Shown here: piece after piece, positions 1 to 33,869 of the stretch
How positions within the stretch are numbered: position 1 is the first letter of the stretch
Layout: each line of letters starts with the position of its first letter
IMG/VR virus record: IMGVR_UViG_3300045988_090162
DNA length: 64,000 bases
Source: a virus
Strand: one strand, 5' to 3'
The notes under the pieces: generated by a model
Database searches by the model: none
What the model was told of the DNA's origin: nothing
The model's input: only the letters and a program-made list of their open reading frames with translations
Program-made: the position numbers and the translations under genes

Positions 1-700
1 CTTGCGTTCCTAGGCACTTTTAGCTATCGCCCGTTCTAGGGCCATTACAGGGCCGCACACGCGAAAAAAATTAACTTAGGTACCGAGCGATCCGAGCAAG
101 TGTTACCCTCGGCATTGTGAGGTACCTAACTATTATTTATGAAGATTCCGTGTTGGTTTTGTGAAAAGTCTTGACAGATCAGGAATTGTATGGTCCTCTA
201 TAATAGAGGAATACCATACAATAATACCATATTTGGGACTGCCGCCGCCGTTGCGCCTATATGGCGAAAATGTGTAGAAATGGGGCCTGCCAGCCCAGCG
301 CCCGCAAAATCCTAAAACGAAAGTCAATCATAAAATTAAATAAAAAAATCCCTCCCCGCCCTATATGGCGAGAAGGGACAGAACTAGCACCTACCAAGAG
401 AGCATTCTAAAATGAATTTTAATCGTTTTTGCGTACCCCTGTACGACACAAGAAAAATAAGTCTATCTCTCATGACTTCTACAGCCAATAGAAAGTGAGA
501 ATCAATCATAAAATAAGCTCACATAAACCAAGAGACAGAAGAAAAGAAGTGTGCGGCACATGCTTTTTGTAAGTGAAAATCAATGCGGAAATGTGACTAA
601 ATTAGTTACATTTAAAAAGTGTTTTTTTAATATATGTTTTTATTAAAGTGTAAATTACACTTTTCTGCCCAAAAATTTTGGCCGCATTTGAAAATTAATC

Positions 701-1060
701 TTATTTTACCTTGGGCTTACGCCTGCATGCCATAGACATTTCATACGTCTTGGAATTGAGAATGAATCGAATTTTACCATCATCGCCGACCTCGATGCCA
801 TGCGGGGAATCCTCCCAGTCACCGATGGTCATAGTAAGCTCTCCCAGTGCGTCAGCAATGGAATTCATAATCAATCGCTTTTCAGACACTTTTTTCTCCT
901 TTTTGTCTGTATCGGGCCTGTAGGCTGCATCATACTCTATACCATGCTCTAGCAGATAGAGGTTGGCCGCACTTGCCTGCTGTCTCTTGGACTCTATATA
1001 CTCGTCAGGAATCTCTATGGTATGCTCGTTACCTTTCATATCATAGCAAGTGTGCCGCAT
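701..1060 (-). CDS. hypothetical protein
   Basis: 119-aa ORF on the dominant minus strand; no recognisable motif. Confidence 0.4.
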   Translation of the reverse strand: MRHTCYDMKGNEHTIEIPDEYIESKRQQASAANLYLLEHGIEYDAAYRPDTDKKEKKVSEKRLIMNSIADALGELTMTIGDWEDSPHGIEVGDDGKIRFILNSKTYEMSMACRRKPKVK

Positions 1061-1164
1061 ATGCTTACTTCCTTCTATCTCTTGGAATAGGCCGGAAGTC
1101 TCGTCAAATGGACTCCACGACCCTTCTAATTAAAAAAAGTAGACCCTACTTATTAAATATTTCG

Positions 1165-1521
1165 CTACAGAGCCTTGTACGTGAAGGTCTTGCTGTTCAC
1201 TGCCACCTTCTCGGCACGACCGTCCTCAACGAGGAAACGCATGTTGGCCGCAACCTTGCGGGAGTTGACATCCTCGCCCATGTGCATGGCTACAGTCTTG
1301 GAGGTCGCAGGCTCGTCAAAAGACTTGAGAGCTGCGTAAATCTCGTCAAGGAAAGCCTGCTTCTCTGCGGACTTCTCAGCGTCCTTGGCACGCTTGCGCT
1401 CAATAGCCGCAAGCTGCTTATCGCAGAACTCTACAACGTCTGCGTTGTCGGACATAGCGGACTTGATGGTGTTGTAAATCTCAAACTGGGTCATGTTAAT
1501 CTTCTTTCTCTTGGAACCCAC
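1165..1521 (-). CDS. hypothetical protein (lysine/glutamate-rich)
   Basis: 118-aa ORF, minus strand, flanked by intergenic spacers. Confidence 0.45.
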   Translation of the reverse strand: MGSKRKKINMTQFEIYNTIKSAMSDNADVVEFCDKQLAAIERKRAKDAEKSAEKQAFLDEIYAALKSFDEPATSKTVAMHMGEDVNSRKVAANMRFLVEDGRAEKVAVNSKTFTYKAL

Positions 1522-1848
1522 GGAAGGTTTCTTATTCCCTCCCTTTCATTAATTATATTATACTATAAGTTTTCATTGGATGCAAGAATTTTTGCAAAAT
1601 GAATTTGGTTGTGAAAATGAAAATCGAAATGGAAATCGTTTTTTATTTGGAAATGAAATTCGTTTTTGTAGTTGGAATCGAAAATTAAAAAAAGGGTTTT
1701 GAGCTAAAATTTTTTTTCTTGACATTTATTTGCTGAACTGGTAAAATACCGCATTTCCATCCACTAAGTCATGTAATCATTTTTACCCTTATATGGACTT
1801 TCTCCCTGGCTTTTGGATTCTATTCCGAACCGACTCTGCACCATTTTT

Positions 1849-2493
1849 CTAGACTATATGGACTAATTTCCTAAACCTACAGTCCTGTTCGCCAGTCACT
1901 TTAGTTACCTTATATCTATATTCTATAACGCCCATATCAGACAACGCTTCGATTGCCTTACCGACATGTTTGCTTTTGGCACCGTGATCACTCACGCCAA
2001 GAGTATTACAGATAACCTTGTTGGTTATCTCAGGCTCTTTAAAAGAATTATCTATCGCTTTACAGGCACCATATACTCTCAGCACCATAACCAAATCTTT
2101 GCGGCCAATTAAATGGTCATATATCTTATCATACACCTTTTTATCTACTTTGGCAAATCTCCACCCTTCATCAAACTTATGTAGCCAATATGTCTTATCT
2201 TCTTTCATATCATATTCTAGCATATCAAATTTGCCCATGTCAATATCATTTACTTCGCTGGGGCTGTTTGCATGATTCAACACGGTATCTTCCAATTTGC
2301 GTACGCCGCGGCGAATGTTTCTGTCACTCATACCGACTTCTTGCGCCACATCCCACGGTATTACTTTTCCATCTACATAACTGACTGGCTTACCTTTCAC
2401 TTCCATAACCGAACAGTTGCGCTGAAACCAGAAATCTATAGCATATTCTGAATCACTCCAAGGTCTATCGAAAAATATCAATCTTTGCGGCAT
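1849..2493 (-). CDS. putative DNA-binding / replication-associated protein
   Basis: 214-aa ORF whose upstream region (2575-2757) carries an iteron array and AT-rich direct repeats; functional call is by context only. Confidence 0.4.
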   Translation of the reverse strand: MPQRLIFFDRPWSDSEYAIDFWFQRNCSVMEVKGKPVSYVDGKVIPWDVAQEVGMSDRNIRRGVRKLEDTVLNHANSPSEVNDIDMGKFDMLEYDMKEDKTYWLHKFDEGWRFAKVDKKVYDKIYDHLIGRKDLVMVLRVYGACKAIDNSFKEPEITNKVICNTLGVSDHGAKSKHVGKAIEALSDMGVIEYRYKVTKVTGEQDCRFRKLVHIV

Positions 2494-2644
2494 ATGGCAT
2501 CACTCTAAATTTCCATGACAATTTTCCATATGCTTTTGGAACTTTTCAAAACAAGTGTACGAACACGCGCAAGCGTGTTCAATAACAACTATATAACAAC
2601 TATATAGACAATTATAAAACAACTCTATAACAACTAATATAGGA

Positions 2645-2757
2645 ACACACGTTTTGTCCGGTTCCGACTCACGTTTTGTCCGCTTATAACTCACGTTTTG
2701 TCCGGTCCCGATACACATTTTGTCCGTTTTCAATACACGTTTTGTCCGTTGAACTTG
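2645..2757. repeat. iteron array: five direct copies of ACAC(G/A)TTTTGTCCG at ~22-nt spacing
   Basis: Direct repeats read at 2647, 2668, 2690, 2713, 2744; preceded (2575-2640) by about five copies of AACAACTATAT. Confidence 0.75.
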
Positions 2758-2805
2758 TTTCACTTGCATACCGTGTGTTGCCAATAAACTAACCATACAA
2801 ATCAC

Positions 2806-3417
2806 TTAACGCTTATTAAGCGCCAAACCCGTCAACTCAAATAACTTACAATGGGGATGCTTTTCATCTTTATAAGGCTTATACTCAATTAAACCTTTGT
2901 CCGCAAGCCATTCAACGTACTCTTGGGCAAGTTCCCGATTCTTTTTATTATATGGCATATAACACATATCGCAAACATTCTTCATAGAAAAAATATAATT
3001 ACGATGCTTAACGTCATGCTGATAATTATACATCTTGGCTAAGCAACAATAAGCAGTAGTAACCTGAGTAGCATAATCAATCGTCCATTCAAATGGAAAA
3101 TAGTTGAAGAGTAAAGCAGTCTGCTCTTCACCCAAAAGAACAAAATAACTATTATTGACACTATAATTATAATTATAATTATATAGCCCATTTTCTTCAT
3201 CAAACGGAATAATCATTTCATTCTTAATAGCATTTCTTATTAGTTCTTTAAATTCTTCCAAATCATTTCCACCACCACAAATAAAATAAATATCATCAAG
3301 GGTGAAACCATCACGACCATTCTTATCTGCCCAATCTGAATGAGACTGTGCCGCAAGCGAGATAAAAGGATTATATTCCTTGTCCAACAACTTCTTACCT
3401 AAATCTACTCTATACAT
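2806..3417 (-). CDS. hypothetical protein
   Basis: 203-aa ORF, minus strand. Confidence 0.5.
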   Translation of the reverse strand: MYRVDLGKKLLDKEYNPFISLAAQSHSDWADKNGRDGFTLDDIYFICGGGNDLEEFKELIRNAIKNEMIIPFDEENGLYNYNYNYSVNNSYFVLLGEEQTALLFNYFPFEWTIDYATQVTTAYCCLAKMYNYQHDVKHRNYIFSMKNVCDMCYMPYNKKNRELAQEYVEWLADKGLIEYKPYKDEKHPHCKLFELTGLALNKR

Positions 3418-3709
3418 TTCAAACTAACCTCTCTAATTAGAGCATCATAATACATTTATAGTATAACATACTTTCTTATATTTCGTCAAGTAAAAGAAAA
3501 GACCCACGGCCATAGGCCGCAGGTCTTTTACTACGCACTATTTAATTTTTCTATCCTTCTTTTGGATACAAATATATTCAGATTCCCAGTCTTCTTTATG
3601 GCACAGTTTCAAGCATGTCATACACATAATCCATAATTTTAAACTGCCAGTCAATCATAGAGTCTTTTCCTCTTGTATCGGAGAATAACGGATACATATT
3701 ATCACCTAC

Positions 3710-4069
3710 CTACTGAAGTCCATCAATTGCATCAATGCTAGAAAGAATAGTCTTACCATCTTCCTTAACCATATGACAGGCAAAAGGATAATCAGAGAAA
3801 TAGTTATCAGTTACAGGCAGATAGAGATAGTAATCATCCTCTTCATCTACGCCAGCGACCAAGACATTATCAATCAGGTCATACATAGTCGGCAGCTCAG
3901 TATCATTACACGTATCCCGATTGGTCGCAAGAATCTCAACCTGATAACCCGCGCACTTATAAATATAATACGCCGCAGATGCCACGAAATCCAAAGTCCA
4001 ATAGACGTTCTCATACTTCTCATTGGTCAACAGCATATGCATTCCTAATCCCAATCGTTGACAGTCCAA
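3710..4069 (-). CDS. hypothetical protein
   Basis: 119-aa ORF. Confidence 0.45.
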   Translation of the reverse strand: MDCQRLGLGMHMLLTNEKYENVYWTLDFVASAAYYIYKCAGYQVEILATNRDTCNDTELPTMYDLIDNVLVAGVDEEDDYYLYLPVTDNYFSDYPFACHMVKEDGKTILSSIDAIDGLQ

Positions 4070-4374
4070 TAGACGCTCAAATGACCGCCGGGCTTATTAT
4101 CATACTCGTCAGCATCATGCCAATAGTAATCACAGACACACAGACCAAGGTCCTCAAGAGTATTCTTGGCATCGAGCATTTCCTTCTCAGCTCCCTCGCA
4201 AACAACCCAATAGGCGCAACCAGCATAATAGTCCTTGCGCTCTTCAAGAAGCATATCGGCAGCAATGTTCACCAGAGGGGTGACTTCCTTCCAGAGCTTG
4301 TCGCCATTGACAACCTCATATGCCGCATCCAGAAGACCGTCAATCTGTGCAAGAATCGTCTCAACCTTGGTCAT
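4045..4374 (-). CDS. hypothetical protein
   Basis: 109-aa ORF; CCAAGAGA leader motif upstream at ~4390. Confidence 0.5.
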   Translation of the reverse strand: MTKVETILAQIDGLLDAAYEVVNGDKLWKEVTPLVNIAADMLLEERKDYYAGCAYWVVCEGAEKEMLDAKNTLEDLGLCVCDYYWHDADEYDNKPGGHLSVYWTVNDWD

Positions 4375-4467
4375 ATACTTTCTCCTTTCTCTTGGAATAC
4401 TTTATCTTATCCTCTCCCTTTCTCTATATATATTATATAATAATATAGAGCAGACCGCAAGAACTTT

Positions 4468-4758
4468 TTATAGGTCAATTTCCTCAAGAAACAGATGAAT
4501 ACAATACTTGCCGCCAACCTTGGCATAACTAAGACAATCCCAGTGTGCTTTATAGCCAAAAGACGTGATAATGTAATTGATAGCCGCAATCACATAATCC
4601 ATGTCACTCATGCAATTAGCAGGAATGTAGAAAAAATTAGGGCAATCTACATTCTCATGCATACGACAAATAACATCGACAGTCTTCGTGAGAATATTTT
4701 TATCCTTAATGCGGGCAAGAATAACATTAAGACGAAGGTTATCATATTTGTTGGTCAT
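4468..4758 (-). CDS. hypothetical protein
   Basis: 96-aa ORF. Confidence 0.45.
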   Translation of the reverse strand: MTNKYDNLRLNVILARIKDKNILTKTVDVICRMHENVDCPNFFYIPANCMSDMDYVIAAINYIITSFGYKAHWDCLSYAKVGGKYCIHLFLEEIDL

Positions 4759-4844
4759 TTGAATTCCTTTCCTTGCCTTTCTTTAATAATATTATATAAC
4801 ATTATTAAACAGACTGCAAGAAAAATCTTATGCGGCCAATGGCC

Positions 4845-5069
4845 TTATTCTTTCTTCTCTTGGATTACCTCACGCACAAGAAACACAGTTTCCCTTGCCG
4901 CATACAGAATCATACAGATACCAACGATAAAACCAATAACACATAGGACAGTGAAAATAAGCAGACTCATAGGAGAACTACCAATCAATGTCGCTAGTGT
5001 CATTATCATGTCCCCAACAGGAGAATATAAAAGACAAGACAGCGCATACTCCAACGATTGCACAAACAA
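4845..5069 (-). CDS. small membrane protein
   Basis: 74 aa with two hydrophobic helices. Confidence 0.4.
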   Translation of the reverse strand: MFVQSLEYALSCLLYSPVGDMIMTLATLIGSSPMSLLIFTVLCVIGFIVGICMILYAARETVFLVREVIQEKKE

Positions 5070-5311
5070 GACAGACAGCTCCTAACACTTCATCAATCAT
5101 AATCTTCATTATCATATGCATCAATTACATTGCCGAGCCAATCATAGAAAGTTTCGCCGCTACCGCTTTCAATCTTATTAACATAATCAACAATATTATC
5201 TATATCGTCAGTAGCACTAAGGGCATCTAAAATATCATCATAGATATAATCCATATAACCTCCAATAGCAAAAAGGAGAATAGATTTCTCTACTCTCCTT
5301 GTGCGGCCAAT

Positions 5312-6028
5312 CTAGTCTTCAAAATTCATTTCTTTTCGTTCTTGGCGCTCATAGTCTTGGCCGTCCTCGAAGCCTTCATTGTAACCATCTTCACGACCAT
5401 CTGCATAGCCAGTATCGTAACCATCTTGCCAACTGGTGACTTTATCGTTGTGTACATCGGTACAATATGTTTTCAAAACTTTGTTATATGCGCCAGCAGT
5501 CTGAAAATAATGTTTGGCAACACACGCATTAAAACCTGCGGACTCACTCCACACGTCGTTCTCAGCACACTTAGAGCGAGTAACCTTGCCGTCACGCCAC
5601 CACACGATAGTCCAAGGATTATCATACTTGACGCGCTTAATCATATTAACTGAATTTTGATTAAACTTACGGCTAATCTCTTCCTCATGCTTTTGCTTTT
5701 TCTTAGTTAGCTTCTCATAGCCCTCGATAAGTGCAGGATAAAGGAATTCAAGCAAATCATCATCAAGTTCCATATCCATAATATTGCCTGCATAATCAGT
5801 CGCATAATTAAACTTGGCAAGGAACTTGGCATTCAAAGAAGCAAGCTGATGTGCGGCTTTTGCGCACTCAGCTGTCTTAACATCTGAATTAGTCACAATA
5901 TTGTTCTTATAAAATGAACCATCAAAATCACTGCATTTTTCTACGCCTATACCGACACCAAGTGTACCCATACTAGTTCTCTTTACTAAAGTCCTTCTGG
6001 ACTTGCTCAAAATACTTATAAAAGTCAT
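5312..6028 (-). CDS. hypothetical protein
   Basis: 238-aa ORF with acidic DGY-rich C-terminus. Confidence 0.5.
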   Translation of the reverse strand: MTFISILSKSRRTLVKRTSMGTLGVGIGVEKCSDFDGSFYKNNIVTNSDVKTAECAKAAHQLASLNAKFLAKFNYATDYAGNIMDMELDDDLLEFLYPALIEGYEKLTKKKQKHEEEISRKFNQNSVNMIKRVKYDNPWTIVWWRDGKVTRSKCAENDVWSESAGFNACVAKHYFQTAGAYNKVLKTYCTDVHNDKVTSWQDGYDTGYADGREDGYNEGFEDGQDYERQERKEMNFED

Positions 6029-6630: not shown

Positions 6631-6663
6631 ATTGGAAAACCTTTCTTCCTTGCCATTTCTTTA

Positions 6664-6700
6664 ATTATATTATATAATAATGGAGGACGAACCGCAAGTA
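6664..6700 (-). promoter_or_regulatory. sigma70-like promoter of the cassette family (TTGC/TTGAC – N17 – TATATAAT)
   Basis: rc reads ...CTTGCGG-N17-TATATAAT then CCA..AAGG leader and ATG; same cassette recurs about 20 times. Confidence 0.55.
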
Positions 6701-6934: not shown

Positions 6935-6982
6935 ATAAGAACTTCTTTCTCTTGGTTTATTTAATTATATTATATAACAATT

Positions 6983-14290: not shown

Positions 14291-14388
14291 ATATAAACAG
14301 CATCAGACCTCTCTCTGTCAAGTTTCGCTATAAAGAAGCGCTGCGAGTTATCATTATTCTGTATCTAATGCTGTTTTAAACAGGTAGG

Positions 14389-14459
14389 AGCGGCGTAAGA
14401 GATTCTAACTCTCACCAAAGGCTTGGAAGGCCTGTATGCTAACATTACACCAACGCCGC
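14389..14459 (-). tRNA. tRNA-Gly (anticodon TCC)
   Basis: acceptor GCGGCGT/ACGCCGC, anticodon loop CTTCCAA, T-arm GAGAG-TTAGAAT-CTCTT; anticodon stem is only 4 bp. Confidence 0.6.
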
Positions 14460-14467
14460 ATATAAGG

Positions 14468-14540
14468 TGTCCACGGGTAGAATTGAACTACCGACACGCA
14501 GATTTTCAGTCTGCTGCTCTACCTACTGAGCTACATGGAC
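14468..14540 (-). tRNA. tRNA-Phe (anticodon GAA)
   Basis: acceptor GTCCATG/CGTGGAC, D-arm GCTC-AGTAGGTA-GAGC, anticodon stem GCAGA/TCTGC with loop CTGAAAA, T-arm GGTAG-TTCAATT-CTACC. Confidence 0.8.
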
Positions 14541-14544
14541 ATGC

Positions 14545-14619
14545 TGGCTTCTCTATTATGACTCGAACATAAACTAACGGAACCAAAATCCGTTGTGCTG
14601 CCAATTACACCATAGAGAA
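14545..14619 (-). tRNA. tRNA-Gln (anticodon TTG), CCA encoded
   Basis: acceptor TTCTCTA/TAGAGAA (perfect), D-arm GTGT-AATTGGCA-GCAC, anticodon stem ACGGA/TCCGT with loop TTTTGGT, T-arm TTATG-TTCGAGT-CATAA, 3' GCCA. Confidence 0.8.
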
Positions 14620-14626
14620 ATTTTCG

Positions 14627-14698
14627 TGCGCTAGTGGAGATTCGAACTCCAATCTCAAGAACGTCACCTTGCAATTTTGCCAGTTAAACTACTAACAC
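14627..14698 (-). tRNA. tRNA-like gene with atypical anticodon arm (possible pseudo-tRNA or non-canonical tRNA)
   Basis: Good acceptor (GTGTTAG/CTAGCGC with two G·U pairs), D-arm GTTT-AACTGGCA-AAAT and T-arm TGGAG-TTCGAAT-CTCCA; the anticodon region folds only as CAAGG/TCTTG around a 6-nt loop TGACGT (or a 4-bp stem with an 8-nt loop). Confidence 0.45.
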
Positions 14699-14819
14699 AC
14701 TACTCACTAGTGGCAATTATTTTAAGGATAATTGCAAAACCTTTTAGTCTAAAGCTAGCTAGGCTTTAGAAGTTGAAAATATAGGGTTAAGCTATTTCCT
14801 ATATTTTCTATATTTTCTA

Positions 14820-14925
14820 TATATCTAGTCGAATGTAAGAACCGTATTTAACCAATTAAACTACCTCGCACTTGCCGTGCGAGAGTGGGAGTCGAACCAA
14901 CATCTGCTCTATGCTCGACTTGATA
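14820..14925 (-). ncRNA. candidate Y RNA-like (YrlA-like) ncRNA with a permuted tRNA-like module
   Basis: Downstream of promoter 14931-14959. The minus strand reads 5' GTCGAGC..., then T-arm GTTGG-TTCGACT-CCCAC, then hairpin CTCGCAC-GGCAA-GTGCGAG (acceptor-like stem closed by a loop), then a D-arm-like GTAGTTTAATTGGTTAAAT, then ...CATTCGAC pairing back to the 5' end. tRNA parts are present but in YrlA-like permuted order. Confidence 0.45.
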
Positions 14926-14930
14926 ACTAT

Positions 14931-14959
14931 ATTATATAAAACTACTTGGCATTTGTCAA
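14931..14959 (-). promoter_or_regulatory. sigma70-like promoter (TTGACA-N17-TATATAAT) driving the Y-like RNA and tRNA operon
   Basis: rc: TTGACAAATGCCAAGTAGTTTTATATAAT; about 90% identical over ~45 nt to the promoter at 20320-20348. Confidence 0.6.
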
Positions 14960-14978
14960 ATTAATTTTATAATTAAAA

Positions 14979-15054
14979 TGGTGGCTCGCCTGAGTCTCGA
15001 ACTCAGAACCGTCAGATTAAAAGTCTGCTACTCTACCAATTGAGTTAACGAGCC
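14979..15054 (-). tRNA. tRNA-Lys (anticodon TTT), CCA encoded
   Basis: acceptor GGCTCGT/GCGAGCC, D-arm ACTC-AATTGGTA-GAGT, anticodon loop CTTTTAA, T-arm CTGAG-TTCGAGA-CTCAG, 3' ACCA. Confidence 0.8.
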
Positions 15055-15071
15055 ATATGCAATCTAGCACG

Positions 15072-15144
15072 CTCTGGCGGCAGGGGTCGAACCTGCGACA
15101 TCTTGATTAACGGTCAAGCGTTCTACCAGCTGAACTACACCAGA
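15072..15144 (-). tRNA. tRNA-Asn (anticodon GTT)
   Basis: acceptor TCTGGTG/CGCCAGA, D-arm GTTC-AGCTGGTA-GAAC, anticodon stem CTTGA/TCAAG with loop CCGTTAA, T-arm GCAGG-TTCGACC-CCTGC. Confidence 0.7.
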
Positions 15145-15208
15145 GTGTACTAGATTATAGGTTAATTATACAATATTTATATGCAATTGTCAAGGAAAAA
15201 GTTAGAGG

Positions 15209-15280
15209 TACGAAATGAAAGAGTCGAACTTTCGTCTTCCCGTTATAAGCAGGATGTCCTAACCGTTGTACGAATTTCGC
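15209..15280 (-). tRNA. tRNA-Ile (anticodon TAT; AUA-decoding, or CAT-like if modified)
   Basis: acceptor GCGAAAT/ATTTCGT, anticodon stem TCCTG/CGGGA with loop CTTATAA, T-arm GAAAG-TTCGACT-CTTTC; D-stem has one mismatch. Confidence 0.6.
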
Positions 15281-15301
15281 ATTACTGTAACTGCTTTTAA
15301 A

Positions 15302-15673
15302 TTATTGGTGAGACTTAAGCCACCTTTGAACATACCAAAGCTGGCCGCGCCCACCACCAATATCATCTTGACCAGCTGGATCAAATGTCCTTACATTATA
15401 ACCCTTTTCTAAGAACTTATCCTGAAACTTCTTAATAACATCTAAGTTCCTAAACGCCGCATCTTTAAGCATGGCGGGAATACCGTCAAACAGCTCATGC
15501 TCACCAAGAGTCTCTAAAGCAACATCAACCAAGTCGGCATCATACATGTCATAAAGCAGGTCAAGATATGCGTCACGGTCAGATTCACTAATCTCCATTG
15601 TATTCCTCTTCGTCATACTCGCCATCATTGCACATCCAATCATTGACGCATACCTTTTCAGGTTCATCTTCAA
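15302..15673 (-). CDS. hypothetical protein
   Basis: 123-aa ORF with the CCAAGAGA cassette upstream (15770). Confidence 0.5.
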   Translation of the reverse strand: MKMNLKRYASMIGCAMMASMTKRNTMEISESDRDAYLDLLYDMYDADLVDVALETLGEHELFDGIPAMLKDAAFRNLDVIKKFQDKFLEKGYNVRTFDPAGQDDIGGGRGQLWYVQRWLKSHQ

Positions 15674-15829
15674 TCAGATGCTTGCGGCAGATGCCTAGAT
15701 ACCAAAGGTCTGTTGACTCATAATATTTGCAATTGCCGCATATATTAGTAGCTTCAACCATTGTTTCTTCTTTCTCTTGGTTTCTTTAACTATATTATAG
15801 CATATCTTTTAACCAAAAGTCAAGAAAAA

Positions 15830-16102
15830 TTAAGTATAAAATTCGTTGAAATCATTAAGCCAATCCAAGAGAGCTAAAGATGTAAGTGGAGTCATGTCCC
15901 ATAACTGCTCAGCACAATAAATGCTAGTATGAGAAGGATTCTTTTCCATAGCATTTACAACAAGCTCATGAAAAACAGCACGGTCAACTTTTTTAAGTTC
16001 ATCGACAATCTTCTCAATATCCTTTTGCTGACTAAGATATACAATGAAATCAAGAATCATAGCAGTCATTTTATTAAGGTGCATACTACACATTTCACTC
16101 AT
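15830..16102 (-). CDS. hypothetical protein (start trimmed to an internal Met)
   Basis: ORF 15830..16207 overlaps the upstream gene; the internal MSEMCSMH start abuts the upstream stop. Confidence 0.4.
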   Translation of the reverse strand: MSEMCSMHLNKMTAMILDFIVYLSQQKDIEKIVDELKKVDRAVFHELVVNAMEKNPSHTSIYCAEQLWDMTPLTSLALLDWLNDFNEFYT

Positions 16103-16397
16103 ATTTCTGTCTCCAAAGTTCACGTGCGGCCATTCGTGCTTCACGACATTCAGGAGAAGAATCATTCTTCCCTGTTTGCTGTAAAACATACTCTTCAATA
16201 AAATCATAACTACTTATATCAGCGACATTTTTTACAAACTGAGGACAGCATGTAGGCCACCAAGCTCCAATACGGCCAATTCTATAAAAGCAAGAGCCAA
16301 ACTTCTCATGGCGTTTACCTTTTGAAGTAACATCGCCTAACCAGTGAACGCACTCACCGCATGTATGGTCAGAGTTTACATCACAAAAAGGAAACAA
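16095..16397 (-). CDS. Cys-rich small protein
   Basis: 100 aa with CxxC pairs (CGEC...CCPQ). Confidence 0.45.
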   Translation of the reverse strand: MFPFCDVNSDHTCGECVHWLGDVTSKGKRHEKFGSCFYRIGRIGAWWPTCCPQFVKNVADISSYDFIEEYVLQQTGKNDSSPECREARMAARELWRQKYE

Positions 16398-16537
16398 GAC
16401 TCGCCGATAGTATCATGGAGCTGGTCTTTGCAGACACAATGAAAGTAACCTTTCTCGCCCCAACGCTTCTTGCTATACTTATGCTGCGGACAATGGCTTA
16501 GACCTTCACATGAGATTTTATATTCATCGTTAGTCAT
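16376..16537 (-). CDS. Cys/His-rich small protein (start trimmed)
   Basis: The internal Met gives a 53-aa CxxxxC...HC..C protein abutting its neighbours. Confidence 0.35.
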   Translation of the reverse strand: MTNDEYKISCEGLSHCPQHKYSKKRWGEKGYFHCVCKDQLHDTIGESCFLFVM

Positions 16538-16724
16538 GCTTCTCCAATTTAGGATGAATTGCCCATTCGCCGCACCTATCTCCGCTTTGCGGTGAAGGAT
16601 GAACAGTATAAACATTATAATCTGTTGGGTCAATAATTACATTGGGTGGGAAACGATAGCAACTGCAATTTTTATAAAATCTGCAATTGCCGCAGATACG
16701 CTGGACCTTATGCTTGACTTCCAT
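16530..16724 (-). CDS. Cys-rich small protein (start trimmed; GGAGAG RBS)
   Basis: Internal MEVKHKVQRICGNCRFYKNCSC start with RBS GGAGAGTAAAATG, immediately upstream of the phosphoesterase. Confidence 0.4.
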   Translation of the reverse strand: MEVKHKVQRICGNCRFYKNCSCYRFPPNVIIDPTDYNVYTVHPSPQSGDRCGEWAIHPKLEKHD

Positions 16725-16725
16725 T

Positions 16726-17322
16726 TTACTCTCCAAGCTCAATCTTTTTCTGCTGGACATCGAGCCAAATATCATGAATGCTGACAGGAGTAAGATTATT
16801 CGTGTCAACGCCTACGTGATATGTCCAATCAACAAGACCCTTGGGAGCCGCGTCATGGACATGACCATACAGAATGACATTGGCGCTGTCTCCACGCATT
16901 TCCTCGGGACGCTCATGAATCATAATGAAACTGACATCGTTGTAATCAAGGCAAGACACCTTGTTTTCGATAATCCAGCCGAGCTTTTCCATTTCTGCAA
17001 TGCGCTTCTTGGTATCATGATTGCCGGGAATCACATGAATCTTGCCGTTGAGACGAGAGCCATATTTAGCTACAGTCTCAAGTGGTCCCATGAAGCAATC
17101 ACCAAGATGATAGACAGTATCATCAGGAGATACAACGGAATTCCAGTTTTTGACAATAGCTTCATTCATTTCTTTGACCGTATCAAACGGACGCGACTCT
17201 GGACAAAACTTGATAATATTCTCATGTTGAAAATGAGTATCAGAAATAACAAAAACACTCATTGAATCTCCTTTCGATTTCTTAAATATATTATAACATA
17301 ATATATAGCCAATAGTCAACAA
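16726..17322 (-). CDS. calcineurin-like metallophosphoesterase (protein/polynucleotide phosphatase-like)
   Basis: Motifs ISDTHF (GDxHG-like), GDCFMG (GDxxDRG-like), GNHD, and GHVH. Confidence 0.75.
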   Translation of the reverse strand: MLTIGYILCYNIFKKSKGDSMSVFVISDTHFQHENIIKFCPESRPFDTVKEMNEAIVKNWNSVVSPDDTVYHLGDCFMGPLETVAKYGSRLNGKIHVIPGNHDTKKRIAEMEKLGWIIENKVSCLDYNDVSFIMIHERPEEMRGDSANVILYGHVHDAAPKGLVDWTYHVGVDTNNLTPVSIHDIWLDVQQKKIELGE

Positions 17323-17358
17323 AAAAATAGGGACTCAAAAGAGTCCCTACAAAAATAT
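17322..17358. terminator. bidirectional rho-independent terminator
   Basis: AAAAAAATAGGGACTCaaaaGAGTCCCTACAAAAATA. Confidence 0.65.
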
Positions 17359-17420
17359 CAATGTGTGCGAAAAAGTTAGATTCAGACTATTTTAATTGCC
17401 CTATGAAGTAACTGAATCTT
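17347..17420. repeat. hairpin-repeat unit 1 (ATGCG...TTAGATTCAG...CTGAATCTTAA...CGCAT family)
   Basis: Outer inverted ends TGCG/CGCA enclose an inner inverted repeat TTAGATTCAG / CTGAATCTTAA. Confidence 0.5.
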
Positions 17421-17699
17421 AATCACGCACATTTGCGCCTATATAGCTCGCACACTATATAGGCGAGAAAGGGGTTTACAAATAATGGCAAGGAAAAAGT
17501 GTAAAGAGTGTAGGTGGGGGTTGCCTCTTTCTAATGAAAGCTGCTCTTATTTAAACATATAACGAAGTAACTCTTTACTAATCACTTGCCGCACAAGAGA
17601 AAGCGATACGGAAATAGGTGTTTCAGTTTGAGTAATCAGCTCAGAATGGAGATTTGAAGTATCTGAAACGTTATCACGTATCGTCTACTTTAATAAAAT

Positions 17700-17810
17700 G
17701 AATGCGGAAAAGCCTAAATCAGTGAAATGTGTACCGACACAGAGCAGGAGCCGAACCTGCAAGCGCATTTTTCCAGAATGAAGTAACTGATTTATCATCA
17801 CGCATTATAG
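17700..17810. repeat. hairpin-repeat unit 2 (covariant stem CCTAAATCAGT / ACTGATTTATCA)
   Basis: Same outer ATGCGGAAAAG ... TCACGCAT frame as the other units, with compensatory changes in the inner stem. Confidence 0.5.
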
Positions 17811-17819
17811 TAAATAAAA

Positions 17820-17905
17820 TAAATGCGGAAAAGTTAGATTCAGTGTCTAATTATTAACATACCAAAATTAATGAAGTAACTGAATCTTAATCACGCATTT
17901 AATAA
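17820..17905. repeat. hairpin-repeat unit 3
   Basis: AATGCGGAAAAGTTAGATTCAG...GAAGTAACTGAATCTTAATCACGCAT. Confidence 0.5.
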
Positions 17906-17956
17906 ACGTTGGTGCCGCATCTAGGTACCGCCCCTAGCCAGTCTAAGACAGAAGAT

Positions 17957-18322
17957 TTACAAGTGTACGATATACTGATATGTATCAAAATATCCACTGT
18001 GGCACTCAGTTATATCAGAATATAACTTTATATGGGATTTATTCGTAATTTTGTTTACTGGTATAGAATACATTAAACCAGTTGTACCATTTAAACAAAA
18101 TAATAAATCTACAGGATGGTTTGTTACATTATCATATTCTTTTCCATTAGTGCCACCACAACTTCTTAAAGATATAGTATTATCTTTTGACGTTGTACAT
18201 TTGCATTGTACAGTTTGAAAGACGCCATCTTTTTCAATAATTAAATCATACCACTGTGTATCAGACAAAGGAAGAGAGACAGTATAGCCATTAGAACCAT
18301 AATATGCAATAGCCACTGACAT
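17957..18322 (-). CDS. hypothetical protein
   Basis: 121-aa ORF. Confidence 0.5.
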   Translation of the reverse strand: MSVAIAYYGSNGYTVSLPLSDTQWYDLIIEKDGVFQTVQCKCTTSKDNTISLRSCGGTNGKEYDNVTNHPVDLLFCLNGTTGLMYSIPVNKITNKSHIKLYSDITECHSGYFDTYQYIVHL

Positions 18323-18384
18323 TCCAGCCCTACTTCTATTTTTATTATTGTCTAATAGCCTTTTCCTCCTTTATGCTTCTAGTA

Positions 18385-18482
18385 TGCCTTGTCTTGGGTT
18401 CGGGAGTCGGACCCGAATGCCTTGCGGCGCTATTTTTTGAGAATAGTGTGTATGCCAGTTCCACCAACCCAAGATAAGGCAT
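18385..18482. repeat. long inverted repeat (18-bp arms) enclosing a GC-rich hairpin
   Basis: GTATGCCTTGTCTTGGGT ... ACCCAAGATAAGGCATAC, with inner hairpin TTCGGGAGTCGGACCCGAA. Confidence 0.55.
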
Positions 18483-18494
18483 ACTAACATGCCT

Positions 18495-18947
18495 TTAATT
18501 TGTCTGTTTCTGAATCCCAAGCTGGTCAAAAAACTCGTCTGGAATAAACTTGTCATCCAAAGGCTGATAATCTTTCCAGATAATCAGAGGATACCAAGTC
18601 TTTGACCACTCGGTAAATTCAGCGAATTCATCATTATATCCAAAAGAAACAGCAAAACCAAACCAGCTTGGTTTGACATGCGGGAAAGTCTTTTTGATAA
18701 TTCCCTCGTTGTCAACAAAATCGCCGATACGACCGCAAATAGTACAAACGTTCCTATAAGCATAAGTCCATGTGCCAGCATATTTATCAAAGTAATTGAT
18801 AACAATACTCTTATCGTAAGTGTGTTTATGATTGGCTTTCTTCACTGTCTTTTTCTTTTTACGAGCGGGAGCATTGGCCGCATCGTCGGGAATATAAGCA
18901 TATTTAGTTGCCAATACTTCACCTTTATAGGAATACGAGGACATCAA
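18495..18947 (-). CDS. hypothetical protein
   Basis: 150-aa ORF with a KKKK stretch. Confidence 0.5.
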   Translation of the reverse strand: MMSSYSYKGEVLATKYAYIPDDAANAPARKKKKTVKKANHKHTYDKSIVINYFDKYAGTWTYAYRNVCTICGRIGDFVDNEGIIKKTFPHVKPSWFGFAVSFGYNDEFAEFTEWSKTWYPLIIWKDYQPLDDKFIPDEFFDQLGIQKQTN

Positions 18948-18992
18948 AGCTCCTTTTCTACTTTTGGATAAACTGAGTAGCTATCTACTCTG

Positions 18993-19064
18993 CTGGAATG
19001 GTAGGACTCGAACCTACAACATTTTGATTAACGGTTAAACGCTCTACCATTGAGCTACACTCCA
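18993..19064 (-). tRNA. tRNA, anticodon GTT (Asn-like); anticodon stem carries an A·C mismatch
   Basis: acceptor TGGAGTG/CATTCCA, D-arm GCTC-AATGGTA-GAGC, anticodon loop CCGTTAA, T-arm GTAGG-TTCGAGT-CCTAC. Confidence 0.55.
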
Positions 19065-19093
19065 GCAGGGTAGATAAGCCACACTTTGTTCTA

Positions 19094-19162
19094 TTGGAGT
19101 GACAAGACTCGAACTTGCGACACGTTGAGTTAACAACATTCTACCAACTGAATTACACTCCA
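19094..19162 (-). tRNA. tRNA-like gene (69 nt) with atypical anticodon arm (6-nt loop TTAACT)
   Basis: acceptor TGGAGTG/CACTCCA, D-arm ATTC-AGTTGGTA-GAAT and T-arm GCAAG-TTCGAGT-CTTGT are fine; the anticodon region folds only as TGTTG/CAACG around TTAACT. Confidence 0.4.
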
Positions 19163-19384
19163 ATAGAATGGATTATTTAGATAAAAGAGCGTTATGAAGA
19201 TAATCGTCAGCTTCTTCAAACGTATCAAAGCTCTTGATAATTTCAAAACGAACAACAGAGCAATCAGTGTTGACACGAATCGAATAGATTCCGCAAGTCT
19301 TTTCACGACAAATGACGAACTGCTTCATAACAAACCTCTTTCTCTCTTGGTCTATATATATTATATAATATTATAAACCAAAAG

Positions 19385-19495
19385 TCAAGAAAAAATATGC
19401 GGAAAAATTGGGGTCAGACTAACAAATGCAGCGTACCGCATTTAAAATATACCATAAAATCTTCATGAAGTAACTGAACCCTCATCACGCATAAT
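19385..19495. repeat. hairpin-repeat unit 4 (covariant stem TTGGGGTCAG / CTGAACCCTCA)
   Basis: ATGCGGAAAAATTGGGGTCAG ... GAAGTAACTGAACCCTCATCACGCAT. Confidence 0.45.
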
Positions 19496-19502
19496 AAATA
19501 AA

Positions 19503-19691
19503 TTAGCTAAGAAAGAATGACACCCTGCTTTGCCTTGTTAATCTTGCGGCGAAGTTTGCGCATGATGCCGACATTCTCTGAGTTCTTACCTTTGCGATTG
19601 ATAAGCATCTGATAACGCTGCTCCATCGTCTCGATTGACTGTGCCATACTTCCTTACCTTTCTCTTGGTTTACTACACTAGAAGAAAACAA
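19503..19691 (-). CDS. small basic protein (Arg/Lys-rich)
   Basis: 62 aa, MAQSIETMEQRYQ...RKLRRKINKAKQG; preceded by a ~130-nt leader ending in CCAAGAGAAAGG, with promoter TTGACA-N17-GATATAAT at ~19805-19835. Confidence 0.45.
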   Translation of the reverse strand: MFSSSVVNQEKGKEVWHSQSRRWSSVIRCLSIAKVRTQRMSASCANFAARLTRQSRVSFFLS

Positions 19692-20224
19692 ATGGTCAAC
19701 CTAACGGCGTACTAAGCATTACACTTCTGGGTGTTGGCAATAAGCCGCAGGGTCACTGGTTTGTTGACGGTACTGTTGACTATCCTTTTTCCCTTTCCTT
19801 CTAGAAATATTATATCAAATTATTCAACTATTTGTCAAATAATTTTTTATAGCAAAAATTGGTCGCGAGGTGTTTCTGCTGCCGAAACTTAACAGAGCTT
19901 ATGAGACTCCGTGAGATACTGACCTCCCACCCGCAATTAAAGTAGTAATTTTCACATCTGCCGAGGTTTGAAAACTACCAAAATATACCAGATTCCTCTT
20001 CCCCTAGGCGCTTCTTTTCAAGTATGCGCTGGCCCGCATTGTCTACGGCTACAGAGACGGCATATATAAAATCTTGCAAGCAAGATAATATAATCACGTG
20101 GACGGTTTCAAACTGGGAAAACCGCCAACCCTTTAATCTATAGTCCCTGCAAAAGACTATAGAAGTCGGGAGACATTTACCTTGCAGCGATAACCTCTCC
20201 CCAGGCATTGGATATAACACAATC

Positions 20225-20305
20225 GCTAGGTGCTATTCTCACCAATTAAACTAACCGCCGTTAACTCGGCCTGTCCGGGAGTCGAACCCACATCTTCACC
20301 ATCAC
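20225..20305 (-). ncRNA. candidate Y RNA-like ncRNA, paralogue of 14820..14925 (may extend 3'-ward to ~19850)
   Basis: Begins just downstream of promoter 20320-20348. The minus strand reads GATGTGGGTTCGACTCCCGG (T-arm-like), then ACAG-GCCG-AGTTAA-CGGC (hairpin), then GGTTAGTTTAATTGGTGAG (D-arm-like). Same module order and near-identical promoter/5' leader as the 14.9 kb element. Confidence 0.4.
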
Positions 20306-20319
20306 GATTTGTTAACTAT

Positions 20320-20348
20320 ATTATATAAAATTACTCGGCGTTTGTCAA
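20320..20348 (-). promoter_or_regulatory. sigma70-like promoter (TTGACA-N17-TATATAAT), paralogue of 14931-14959
   Basis: rc: TTGACAAACGCCGAGTAATTTTATATAAT. Confidence 0.6.
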
Positions 20349-20437
20349 GTAATTTTTTAACTAGGCTGGCTCTTTCTGTGCTGCCCAGAAATTTTATGAT
20401 TCAGAGTCATATGTTCTACTGTTGAACTAAGAGCCAA

Positions 20438-20513
20438 TGGTCTGCTCAGCTCGACTTGAACGAGCAACCCCAAGTTCCCAAAACTTGAGCGCTACCAATT
20501 GCGCTATGAGCAG
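20438..20513 (-). tRNA. tRNA-Pro (anticodon TGG), CCA encoded
   Basis: acceptor CTGCTCA/TGAGCAG (perfect), D-arm GCGC-AATTGGTA-GCGC, anticodon stem CAAGT/ACTTG with loop TTTGGGA, T-arm GCTCG-TTCAAGT-CGAGC, 3' ACCA. Confidence 0.8.
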
Positions 20514-20675
20514 AAAATGGACAAATTTATATAGCGACTGCCCAAACCGCTAAATTGACTTGGGATAAGCACAGACGAATTCAAAGTTCGCTCTACTTAT
20601 CACTTAGAGAGTGTCTAAGATTAGCACTCTATTTTAACAATATAATACATATATTGTTAAAATACAACACTAATT

Positions 20676-21314
20676 TTATATATACACCCAATGAAAACCA
20701 TATGCCGTCTTTTCTTTATTTTCACAAACTTGCTTAATATGCCTTGAAATTCCTTGTGTTGATTTATTTGTAGTGTAGTTATTATCAAAAAGCCAAGCGG
20801 ATGCTTCGTGCAACGATTGAAAAATCTTGTCTTTTTCTATTAAACATACACTTTTAGAATATCGTTCTTTAGAAAGAACATTAGATTGCAGTATTTCTAC
20901 ATTGCATTGTTTACATGCGTACCTAACCGTATCTGCACAACAATGAAAATGTTTTACTACTTTTATCGTATCATGTGTTTCAGTATGCATATCAGCTATT
21001 TTTTGATAATCATAAAAAGGTTTTCCGTCTCCACCTTTTGTAGCATTATATCCATTACAGCCATATGTATTTAGCTTAAAAATCCAATATTCTTCCTGTT
21101 TTGCCGCATCTTCAACGGAGCATTTTTCTAATTGCTCAACATGAAAATGCTCAATGCCATATTTATTCATAGCAGAATACAGAGGACGTTTTTCACATCT
21201 TTCTTTTCTGCTATCTGAAATATGCTCTTTAAATCTTTTGCTGATTGACTTATTAGTTTTTCCAACATATTGTTTTCCGTTAACATCGTTGGTAATTACA
21301 TAAATATAAGACAT
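20676..21314 (-). CDS. GIY-YIG homing endonuclease (free-standing)
   Basis: N-terminal SYIYVITNDVNGKQYVGKT, RFKEH and YGIEHF (GIY-YIG core) with a C-terminal DNA-binding extension. Confidence 0.75.
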   Translation of the reverse strand: MSYIYVITNDVNGKQYVGKTNKSISKRFKEHISDSRKERCEKRPLYSAMNKYGIEHFHVEQLEKCSVEDAAKQEEYWIFKLNTYGCNGYNATKGGDGKPFYDYQKIADMHTETHDTIKVVKHFHCCADTVRYACKQCNVEILQSNVLSKERYSKSVCLIEKDKIFQSLHEASAWLFDNNYTTNKSTQGISRHIKQVCENKEKTAYGFHWVYI

Positions 21315-21582
21315 TTTATCACCAACTTAAATAATAAATGGAGCCAACTGACAGTGCTGCCCTGTCTGCTTCGCTTTACAAGAGCGATGTATTACTGTTA
21401 TACTAAGCTGGCTTTACCAAAAGAAAAATGAGCCTGCAATACTCTAGAAATCTTGCAGGCTCTAACACCACTATTACAATATAATAGTTGCGCAACAAAA
21501 ATTATAACTTTTTGCCCAGAACTTTTATTTTGTAACTAAAGTTATTATACCATATTAGTATAACGTCTGTCAAGAACTTTTT

Positions 21583-33404: not shown

Positions 33405-33869
33405 GTAATATCCTTTCTTTTATGCGTTGGCTATATTATAAACCATAATCATATTGTATGTCAATACTTTTTAGAAAGAATTTTAATTAAAAATTTTTCT
33501 TGACAAAAGACTTGAAAATCATTATACTTTTAACTGGGTTGTTAAGGGGTTTACCCCTTAAATATATATAAAATAAATTATATTAGTTTATAATATAATT
33601 AAATTAGTTTATATATGTATATTGACTTTTATATATATAAGAGATATTATATAATTGTTTTATATATAAAAGATTTTATTATAAAGAAATTCCTGTGCTA
33701 CGCACAGTAATTTCTATTAAAAGAAGAGAAAAAGGATTAAAGAAAAATAAACTACTTTGCTATGCAAAGTAGTAAAAAGAAACAGTAAAAAGAGAAGAAA
33801 AAAAGTTTTTGCGTGCGGCCAAAAATTTGTGTATAATGTAATTACGAAAACAAGAGAAAGGATTTTATA
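33405..33869. promoter_or_regulatory. AT-rich strand-switch region with palindromes (divergent promoters; candidate origin)
   Basis: TTAAGGGGTTTACCCCTTAA palindrome at ~33545, perfect hairpins CTGTGCTACGCACAG and CTACTTTGCTATGCAAAGTAG, TATATA-rich repeats; TTGACA...TATACT at ~33500 and GTGTATAATG at ~33828. Confidence 0.5.

Follow-up and report, generated by a model that had tools for sequence, protein, structure and literature searches.

The 64-kb stretch of DNA analysed here (the window) belongs to the genome, ca. 145 kb in size, of a large uncultured phage of the human gut, and related contigs of 141-148 kb come from human gut metagenomes. The window encodes a topoisomerase II, a RecJ-like nuclease, a DnaE-type polymerase, a ligase, NrdD, a primase, a DnaB-like helicase that is split, and twelve tRNAs, with the helicase, the primase and the DnaE-like polymerase located at 50-60 kb. 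No recognisable origin-binding protein occurs among the replisome genes of the phage (helicase, primase, polymerase, ligase, topoisomerase). Judging by the polymerase, which is 38% identical to YorL, the nearest cultured relatives are the SPbeta-like Bacillus phages. No relative of the window was found at the nucleotide level among 50,697 deposited phage records, and cultured phages and plasmids, searched at both the nucleotide and the protein level, gave no match for the locus described below or for either of its two genes, designated gene A and gene B.

From ca. 33 kb down to ca. 700, every gene lies on the minus strand, and the locus is found near the end of that block. In minus-strand order, it is composed of a terminator, a promoter-like site, gene A, a stretch of 312 nt and gene B. 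The terminator (3497..3529, minus strand) is a strong intrinsic one, with a 15-bp stem and a T run, and closes the upstream transcription unit. It is followed by the promoter-like site TTGACG-18-TATACT with a TG (3460..3489, minus strand), which precedes gene A and from which a transcript covering gene A, the array described below and gene B likely starts. Gene A (2806..3417, minus strand) encodes a product of 203 aa. Gene B (1849..2493, minus strand) encodes a product of 214 aa with two predicted tandem winged-helix domains, a candidate origin-binding initiator. The 312-nt stretch in between contains, in the same order, a leader, a set of 22-bp repeats, a set of AT-rich repeats, a palindrome and ca. 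65 nt of variable sequence. The leader (2756..2805, minus strand) extends over 50 nt from the stop of gene A to the first repeat and is nearly invariant in the alignment. An ORF of 101 codons (2500..2805, minus strand), hereafter the spacer ORF, covers the leader, the array, the AT tract and the palindrome. Since Rfam matches in the whole window correspond to tRNAs only, this intergenic region is not a known RNA.

Two further promoter-like sites were detected. One is weak (TTGAAA-17-GAAAAT; 2521..2549, minus strand) and is the only one that precedes gene B; it is probably dispensable because a 42-nt deletion has removed it in three relatives (L005-L007). The other lies on the plus strand (TTGACA-17-TAAAAT with a TG; 1719..1747), displays 11 of 12 matches, is directed antisense into the 3' end of gene B and is invariant in 9 relatives. 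A small RNA antisense to gene B and starting from this site is not supported by a comparison of folds and pairs, the RNA downstream showing no conserved fold and its predicted pairs no compensated change; whether the site belongs to the system is uncertain. The sequence CYTATATGG, considered as a repeated motif, showed no enrichment.

The most prominent feature of the locus is a set of five 22-bp direct repeats, or iterons (2646..2755, minus strand), which is the top-scoring tandem repeat of the window. Their core, CAC(G/A)TTTTGTCCG, starts on the plus strand at 2648, 2670, 2692, 2714 and 2736, in four exact copies and one with a G>A change. An earlier reading based on the letters alone (the sequence-only reading) had reported five copies of this core at the same place, as found here, but with a spacing of 21-31 nt, whereas the period is exactly 22 nt throughout; the leading A that it had included in the core (ACAC) occurs in three of the five copies only. 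The full unit is thus 22 bp long, occurs in a single orientation and reads, on the minus strand, nnnnnn-CGGAC-A-AAAC-GTG(T/A)(A/G)T. Unit 1 (2734-2755) is on the side of gene A and unit 5 (2646-2667) adjoins the AT tract; repeats 1 and 4 resemble each other, as do repeats 2 and 5. When the 13-nt core was searched with up to 2 mismatches, the sole further match in the 64 kb was at 17200, and none of 100 shuffles gave 6 hits. Each related IMG/VR contig has one array, and this occurrence of one array per genome, without stray copies of the repeat, makes a global regulator unlikely. The location of the array upstream of ORF 1849..2493 on the minus strand, also part of the sequence-only reading, is as described, between gene A and gene B.

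Next to the iterons, on the side of gene B, is an AT-rich tract (2582..2645, minus strand), a candidate DNA-unwinding element. The "about five" AT-rich direct repeats announced beside the array are indeed present as five units of ca. 11 bp at 2582-2641 (TRF period 11, 5.3 copies), the unit reading TATAGTTGTTA on the minus strand. The tract has a GC content of ca. 22-25%, is T/G-rich on the minus strand and A/C-rich on the plus strand, ranks among the least stable 1% of the 60-mers of the window and is nearly invariant among close relatives. Single AT-rich 11-mers are not enriched, with 40 found window-wide at up to 2 mismatches and 42 expected; they are significant solely as a phased tandem array.

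The AT tract is followed by a perfect 8+8 palindrome (2561..2580), GAACACGC-GCAA-GCGTGTTC, that is strandless, is predicted to form a DNA hairpin of -9.2 kcal/mol and had not been mentioned in the sequence-only reading. It occurs in four forms, three of them in relatives, each a perfect inverted repeat of 7 or 8 bp, and the differences between forms are compensated on both arms, which indicates that the symmetry is under selection. One of the forms, AAACGTGC, resembles the right half of the type I iteron (see below), and the form of the palindrome does not track the iteron type or any residue encoded by either gene. A role as operator for the gene B product was therefore ruled out for lack of covariation. 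Likewise, no covariation was found that would designate the gene A product as reader of the 11-mers, which are nearly invariant, or of the palindrome. Finally, no DnaA box (TTATCCACA, up to 1 mismatch, both strands) was found in positions 1-6000 of the window.

Gene B was found at 78-92% identity in seven contigs of IMG/VR, sixteen from metagenomes and several from ENA or Logan. Conservation of the repeats in relatives had been proposed as a check on their significance, and the same layout, with five copies of the repeat, is present in every close-relative contig (ca. 30) that includes the upstream DNA. In these close relatives the repeats are of type I, CGGAC-A-AAAC-GTG(T/A), or type II, CGGAC-A-AAT(T/C)-(G/A)(A/G)GG, and a third type differs from type I by having CGGAA in each of the five copies. 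Hybrid arrays (L015-17) also occur, in which the resident protein is matched by just the two repeats closest to the AT tract. The A/T spacer within the unit also flips in polarity, from AAAAC to TTTTG in L005 and L022 and from AAAATC to ATTTAT in the distant relative L047, which suggests that its individual bases are not read.

Outside this group, gene B relatives are rare. When 1.84 billion representative proteins were scanned exhaustively with HMMER, only two remote ones emerged (E=3e-12 and E=6e-7), to which a word-indexed search added a third, with 51% identity; the corresponding loci are L047, L048/L049 and L018, respectively. No relative was found in a scan of GTDB genomes, and tblastn of gene B against 72,556 plasmids gave no match. 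All three distant loci carry repeats with wholly different sequences, again as five 22-bp units (e.g. GGTCAAAATCTTGGG... and CGTCCGTTTTCGTTGG...), followed by four or five AT repeats of 11-13 bp, of TATAGAG or ATTTGTT type, directly upstream of the gene B homolog. That the architecture is kept while the sequences are replaced points to a protein-DNA recognition module and not to a chance repeat.

The sequence-only reading had also proposed that the product of ORF 1849..2493 binds the repeats, and this is borne out by residue-to-base covariation in both of its predicted winged-helix domains. In a first set of 18 distinct genomes, with 92-96 variable gene B columns, residues 169, 172, 175, 186 and 187 are the only ones that split perfectly between type I and type II arrays; in a second set, made of the 17 genomes for which gene A was available and with 100 variable columns, only residues 169, 172, 175 and 186 do so. 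The five columns all fall in or beside the C-terminal recognition helix, a clustering that random draws from the variable columns rarely reproduce (P=3e-4). The two halves of the repeat follow different residues. The right half (AAACGTG versus AAT[T/C][G/A][A/G]GG) tracks residues 169/172/175/186 only, while the left half, where CGGAC gives way to CGGAA in each of the five repeats, tracks only S56T and N59I/G in the N-terminal helix. The window allele has S56 and N59 together with D169, A172 and K175; type II alleles have S169, S172 and A or T at 175. The link between residues 56/59 and CGGAA, which had been predicted beforehand, held at both P0013 and P0027, where CGGAA occurs in five repeats out of five.

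The coding DNA for the N-terminal part of gene B sits physically between the codons of the C-terminal helix and the repeats, and genomes of the two types are intermingled when the N-terminal 150 residues are clustered, which indicates that recombination has shuffled the intervening DNA and that the link between helix and repeat has nevertheless survived. P0026, a hybrid that occurs in nature, combines the helix of type II with the wing of type I and lies beside type II repeats. Gene A served as a control, in which none of 84 variable columns associates with iteron type, with the position-5 variant or with the form of the palindrome. In addition, P0037 combines a CGGAA-type N-terminal helix with a type II C-terminal helix, its sole contig stopping 64 nt upstream of the gene.

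Taken at the level of sequence comparison, binding of the repeats by the gene B product is well supported, as is the view that the repeats constitute a conserved, functional protein-binding array. One gene B chain, as a monomer, would read each 22-bp repeat through its two winged-helix domains, with the N-terminal helix (residues 56/59) reading the left half, CGGA(C/A), and the C-terminal helix (residues 169/172/175) the right half, ca. 10 bp or about one helical turn away. Spaced at 22 bp, proteins bound to the five sites would almost line up along a single face of the DNA.

The two-domain organisation of the gene B product is derived from structure prediction. A first AF2 model was too poor (pLDDT 55.6) and gave no match below E=0.02 in a Foldseek comparison with the PDB; addition of the two remote homologs raised the pLDDT to 65.2, with a pTM of 0.71, and yielded two tandem winged helices. 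The recognition helices would correspond to residues ca. 57-74 in the N-terminal domain and ca. 172-186 in the C-terminal one, residues 172-186 being the third helix of the C-terminal winged helix in this model. Among 22 family members, Pfam matches, all below cut-off, were to HTH_24 (15/22), HTH_36 (3/22), Rep3_N (1/22) and Phage_rep_O (1/22, E=0.024). Full-length matches to the model in BFVD include a "Replication initiator protein", the domains taken singly match structures of transcription factors, e.g. Fur, MarR and TFE, and a UniProt ortholog is named "Bacterial regulatory protein". As modelled, gene B fits a Rep-like initiator with two winged-helix domains, a match too weak for homology to be claimed. 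The gene A product also matches Rep3_N (WH1), in 7 of 10 family members and below cut-off (best E=0.0023). Gene A and gene B as sequence paralogs are not supported by hhalign, which aligned only 47 C-terminal columns at a non-significant probability of 3.9%, and the sole sign of relatedness is structural, the BFVD model of a gene A ortholog (A0A8S5TYT5, from the same deposited phage) matching the gene B model along its full length with TM 0.54/0.57.

On its anatomy, the region 2561-2755 is best regarded, with modest confidence, as an iteron-type replication origin of this large gut phage, with the gene B product as its origin-binding protein. This reading is favoured by the association of five 22-bp repeats with five AT-rich repeats of ca. 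11 bp and a palindrome, the AT tract being unstable, and by the persistence of this layout in close and distant relatives. It is further favoured by the presence of a full replisome without a recognisable origin-binding protein and by the occurrence of one array per genome with no stray sites. The hybrid arrays point in the same direction, as they keep cognate repeats at the AT-proximal positions and two such iterons suffice for unwinding and replication in lambda (PMC7466680). Finally, an unrelated small phage carries a near-identical repeat, GCGGACAAAATGTGGA, again spaced at 22 nt, within an ORF directly upstream of a DnaB-like helicase gene. Several observations argue against an origin. The locus is more than 30 kb away from the replication genes, near a convergent junction and not at the GC-skew switch, which coincides with a rival region at 33.4-33.9 kb that is divergent and the most AT-rich of the window. 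There is no DnaA box within 6 kb, every Pfam match is below the curated cut-off, the palindrome does not track the iteron type as would Rep operators of iteron plasmids, and the array, being directly upstream of the gene of its presumed binder, also has the look of an autoregulatory operator.

This last point leads to the main alternative, namely a pure operator or roadblock through which the gene B product would regulate its own synthesis, and perhaps also the expression of genes further downstream, with no role in replication. Such a reading, a serious though less likely rival, would account for the array being located inside the operon directly upstream of the gene of its reader, for the absence of the repeat elsewhere in the window, for the resemblance of the single domains to transcription factors and the name given to the UniProt ortholog, and for the apparent dependence of gene B on upstream transcription and translation (see below). 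It accounts less well for the rest, since phased repeats, a phased asymmetric AT tract and a compensated palindrome exceed the needs of known autorepressors, and this three-part layout has been retained in distant relatives although every sequence has changed. Moreover, one chain with two winged helices on asymmetric direct repeats would correspond to the mode of Rep initiators and not to a dimer on a palindrome. The two functions envisaged in the sequence-only reading, origin and autoregulation, are not mutually exclusive: since the sites lie within the gene B transcript, autoregulation is likely in any case, the anatomy speaks for an origin, and the locus may serve as both. A site for packaging (pac) or for centromere-like partition, with gene B encoding an adaptor similar to ParR, TubR or a small terminase, is very unlikely. 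Tandem repeats of 11-12 bp and 20-22 bp with small winged-helix or RHH binders are typical of parC and tubC, TubR is found among the weak fold matches (rank 7 and rank 33), and the contigs of several relatives end in or near the array. However, neither the window nor any relative has an adjacent gene for a ParA, ParM or TubZ NTPase or for a terminase, the contig ends vary from 58 to 168 nt upstream of gene B with no defined terminus, and searches of bacterial genomes did not find the element as a plasmid or prophage.

The repeats might also be primarily protein-coding, the spacer ORF then representing a real protein of ca. 100 aa whose periodicity would stem from a repetitive protein or from a 66-bp duplication. 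This ORF begins with a GTG directly after the TAA of gene A and ends with a TGA located 6 nt before the ATG of gene B, all three sharing one reading frame. The sequence-only reading had set it aside as almost certainly spurious, which is correct in that it is not a conserved protein but overlooks that the frame is kept open in 18 of 20 relatives, the exceptions being L035, with two in-frame stops, and L015, with a frameshift. The length of the intergenic region in relatives, 276, 300, 309, 312 or 318 nt, is in all cases a multiple of 3. Of the 120 ways in which the five units could be ordered, only ca. 13% on average leave the frame uninterrupted, and the repeat variants are placed so as to avoid stop codons: GTGAG is absent at repeats 2 and 5, where a TGA would result (CGCGAG is found there in L053), and the type II versions TTGAGG and TTAGGG are absent at repeats 1 and 4, where TCAGGG or TCGAGG occurs instead. 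Gene callers also annotated the ORF in L021 and L047. Yet a protein-coding role is highly improbable. The spacer ORF has a dN/dS of 1.04, compared with 0.09 for gene A and 0.14 for gene B, and its variable sites are distributed over the three codon positions as 52/46/40, with no third-position excess. It has no homologs or family hits, its predicted product differs wholesale between iteron types, the 22-nt period is not a multiple of 3, and the frame is interrupted in L035 and L015 and missing from L048. A protein-coding role would also leave unexplained the covariation of the DNA repeats with gene B. Coding of the repeats in relatives had been put forward as grounds for rejecting an origin or operator; it does not discriminate, since the origin of lambda also lies within a coding frame (PMC7466680, PMC3349717).

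What maintains an open frame that evolves neutrally is suggested by the start of gene B, which has a poor Shine-Dalgarno sequence: sequence comparison points to translation read through the spacer ORF as coupling gene A to gene B. Among the distant loci, L047 has an ORF across its array, and L048, which has none, has a good AGGAGA site in front of its gene B. The maintained frame may instead be a by-product of a 66-bp higher-order repeat, as proposed from the likeness of repeats 1 and 4 and of repeats 2 and 5. An alternative genetic code, or stop read-through that would join gene A, the spacer ORF and gene B, was rejected, the large genes being intact under code 11 and the two stops being a TAA and a TGA in ordinary contexts.

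If the region is an origin, the nucleoprotein array assembled on the repeats would stress and open the adjacent, strand-asymmetric tract of AT-rich 11-mers, at which the DnaB-like helicase, primase and DnaE-like polymerase of the phage itself would then be loaded. The whole element would be included in the transcript from gene A to gene B, in a frame that is kept open but whose protein product is not conserved, with ribosomes probably running from the stop of gene A over the array to the weak Shine-Dalgarno start of gene B; protein bound to the repeats could also throttle synthesis of the gene B product. A more elaborate proposal, which is offered as tentative and somewhat doubtful, is that of a dual-use array, read as DNA by the initiator and kept translatable as RNA by selection in the form of a "meaningless" 101-codon spacer ORF. 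The spacer ORF would carry ribosomes from the stop of gene A to the start of gene B, and the amount of initiator would be gated by transcription and translation over its own binding sites. At least three initiator/iteron specificities were detected (CGGAC with type I, CGGAA with type I and CGGAC with type II) in addition to the hybrid arrays, and under the same proposal these co-circulating alleles would represent natural switching of replicon specificity within one phage population.

Hardly any replication origin has been mapped in large uncultured gut phages or in their SPbeta-like relatives, whose replication "has not yet been investigated" (PMC8270828). The locus described here provides a concrete candidate origin together with a candidate initiator from an unannotated protein family. 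Its natural allele series amounts to a putative recognition map that relates residues 56/59 to base 5 and residues 169/172/175 to bases ca. 10-15, and the open but neutral frame over the array would offer a clean case of selection on translation itself.

Among known systems, the origin of lambda provides a close parallel. It comprises four 18-bp iterons joined to a 38-bp AT-rich tract (PMC3349717) and sits inside gene O (PMC3349717, PMC7466680), within a translated frame and the early transcript, where extra iterons simply add codons (PMC7466680). Similarly, the present locus has directly repeated candidate initiator sites joined to an AT-rich tract in an open frame, its length variants are all in frame, and its hybrid arrays keep the cognate repeats at the AT-proximal positions. 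In lambdoid phages the DNA-binding residues of the initiator and the iterons differ together between types, as do the gene B DNA-binding residues and the iterons here. Unlike in lambda, the predicted binder is encoded downstream of the array and not around it, and stops separate gene A, the spacer ORF and gene B, a conserved TGA dividing the array frame, which evolves neutrally, from the in-phase gene B. The repeats are asymmetric and would be read by two domains of one chain, whereas O binds dyad sites as dimers. Gene B has no significant similarity to Phage_rep_O, no P-like helicase loader is found next door and the replication genes are more than 45 kb distant.

The arrangement also resembles that of iteron plasmids (R6K pi, F RepE, pPS10 RepA, RK2 TrfA) and of RctB of Vibrio cholerae, with repeats of 17-22 bp phased at ca. 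22 bp in one orientation, an adjoining AT-rich element with short repeats and the initiator gene in cis. In co-crystals of RepE and pi, each winged-helix domain contacts one half of the iteron. Rep initiators of such plasmids are built of two winged-helix domains, WH1 and WH2, as predicted for gene B, and the unwinding element of RK2 contains four 13-mers (PMC4980987). The present system differs by the lack of detectable sequence homology and of DnaA boxes, by its order (iterons, AT tract, palindrome, gene), by a palindrome that does not covary with iteron type and hence is not a Rep-dimer operator, and by its host replicon, a phage of ca. 145 kb with its own replisome.

For the spacer ORF, the relevant comparison is with tap-repA of plasmid R1 and repY-repZ of IncI/IncB plasmids, in which a leader ORF must be translated for the initiator to be translated, the sequence of the leader peptide being unimportant, its stop lying a few nt from the initiator start and the initiator having a poor ribosome-binding site. 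The spacer ORF likewise stops near the start of gene B, whose Shine-Dalgarno sequence is poor. It differs in its length of 101 codons and in extending over what would be the initiator's own binding sites, and the coupling is here deduced from the conserved open frame alone.

Direct repeats with an AT-rich tract, in or beside early genes, are also found in oriL of SPP1, with G38P, and in the lactococcal "per" origins, where a replisome organiser binds the repeats through its N-terminal winged-helix domain; gene B, in contrast, has no similarity to replisome-organiser or DnaD families. Partition loci such as parC/ParR of R1 and tubC/TubR of pBtoxis share with the present locus a repeat array, of 11-12-bp or ca. 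20-bp units in the centromeres, with a binder encoded beside it, and in these systems a small DNA-binding protein binds the repeats cooperatively. The present locus departs from them in having no partner NTPase, an AT-rich tract of the unwinding type and a binder with two predicted domains. Overall, the kind of system represented here is already known, and what is new is the protein family, the placement of the array in a maintained but meaningless frame and the series of specificity alleles.

Hybrid arrays were found at three loci of relatives (L015-L017) that share one allele, P0019, of gene B, which encodes the two-winged-helix protein inferred to read the 22-bp repeats. In these arrays the three distal repeats carry the CGGAA left half and the type I right half while the pair nearest the AT tract combines CGGAC with type II, and the resident protein has the residues of the CGGAC type and of type II. 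These hybrids look like the products of recombination inside the array. The open frame that overlies the array, between genes A and B, is broken in L015 by a 1-nt deletion. Six short metagenome contigs of relatives (L018, L023, L031, L034, L042 and L050) stop within the array or its flank, with ends that differ in position from 58 to 168 nt upstream of gene B; the assembly probably broke there because several array alleles occur together, and the ends are then not physical termini of the DNA.

An alternative origin site could be the 460-bp divergent intergenic region at 33405-33870, at which the genes change direction and the GC skew changes sign. Of all 60-mers in the window, the two with the lowest stability (at 33562 and 33630) fall here. 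TTGACA-type promoter boxes, several short GC hairpins and AT-rich tandem repeats are also present, but the region is devoid of iterons.

On the other side of gene B, a promoter-like sequence (TTGACA-17-TAAAAT, 11/12 matches, with TG) occurs at 1719-1747 on the plus strand and is aimed antisense into the 3' end of the gene. This site and the downstream blocks CATGTAATCATTTTT and CTATATGGGC are unchanged across nine relatives, with conservation around the site extending to ca. 1850, and a search for a conserved RNA fold downstream of it on the plus strand found none. The spacer 3' of gene B, which is 330 nt long in the window and varies from 350 to 510 nt in relatives, also contains a tandemly repeated sequence (GAAATGAAAATCG...; 1615-1685) whose period is 12/24 nt. 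Further out, positions 1-700 are part of a non-coding stretch of ca. 1.3 kb at a convergent junction, with a GC content above that of its surroundings. Two copies of CCTATATGGCG (257-268 and 359-369) are found there, as is a strong hairpin on the minus strand (379-348) that resembles a terminator, with no Rfam match in 1-700.

The motif TTATAGTATAATATAATTAA occurs six times (0.11 expected; none of 100 shuffles had as many), with matches upstream of small genes on the minus strand (1549-1568, 6661-6680, 6961-6980 and 17282-17301) and one on the plus strand (33583-33602). It is followed by strong GGGAGG ribosome-binding sites and is probably an early-promoter type of the phage.

Twelve tRNA genes lie on the minus strand at 14387-21412, one of which (14626-14698) has a 4-base anticodon (gacg) according to ARAGORN. 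Elsewhere, genes of replication and nucleotide metabolism look split (50055-51848, 60889-63836 and 45030-46575): the DnaB-like helicase is made up of two ORFs, NrdD is divided over two ORFs ca. 670 nt apart, and a GIY-YIG homing endonuclease adjoins the thymidylate synthase gene. Further HNH and GIY-YIG endonucleases occur at 27000-27647 and 20676-21314. Such split genes with neighbouring homing endonucleases suggest introns or inteins.

Finally, a repeat nearly identical to that of the array next to gene B was detected in two unrelated small phage contigs, L055 (IMG/VR 3300031974_001824; 1803-1870) and L054 (IMG/VR 3300000117_000590; 4454-4520), as two copies of GCGGACAAAATGTGGA at 22-nt spacing plus GCGGACATTTT. 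No gene B homolog was found in the DNA examined from these contigs. The repeats sit within a 170-aa ORF having an RHH-like N-terminus, with a DnaB-like helicase directly downstream and RusA and RecE-like genes adjacent.
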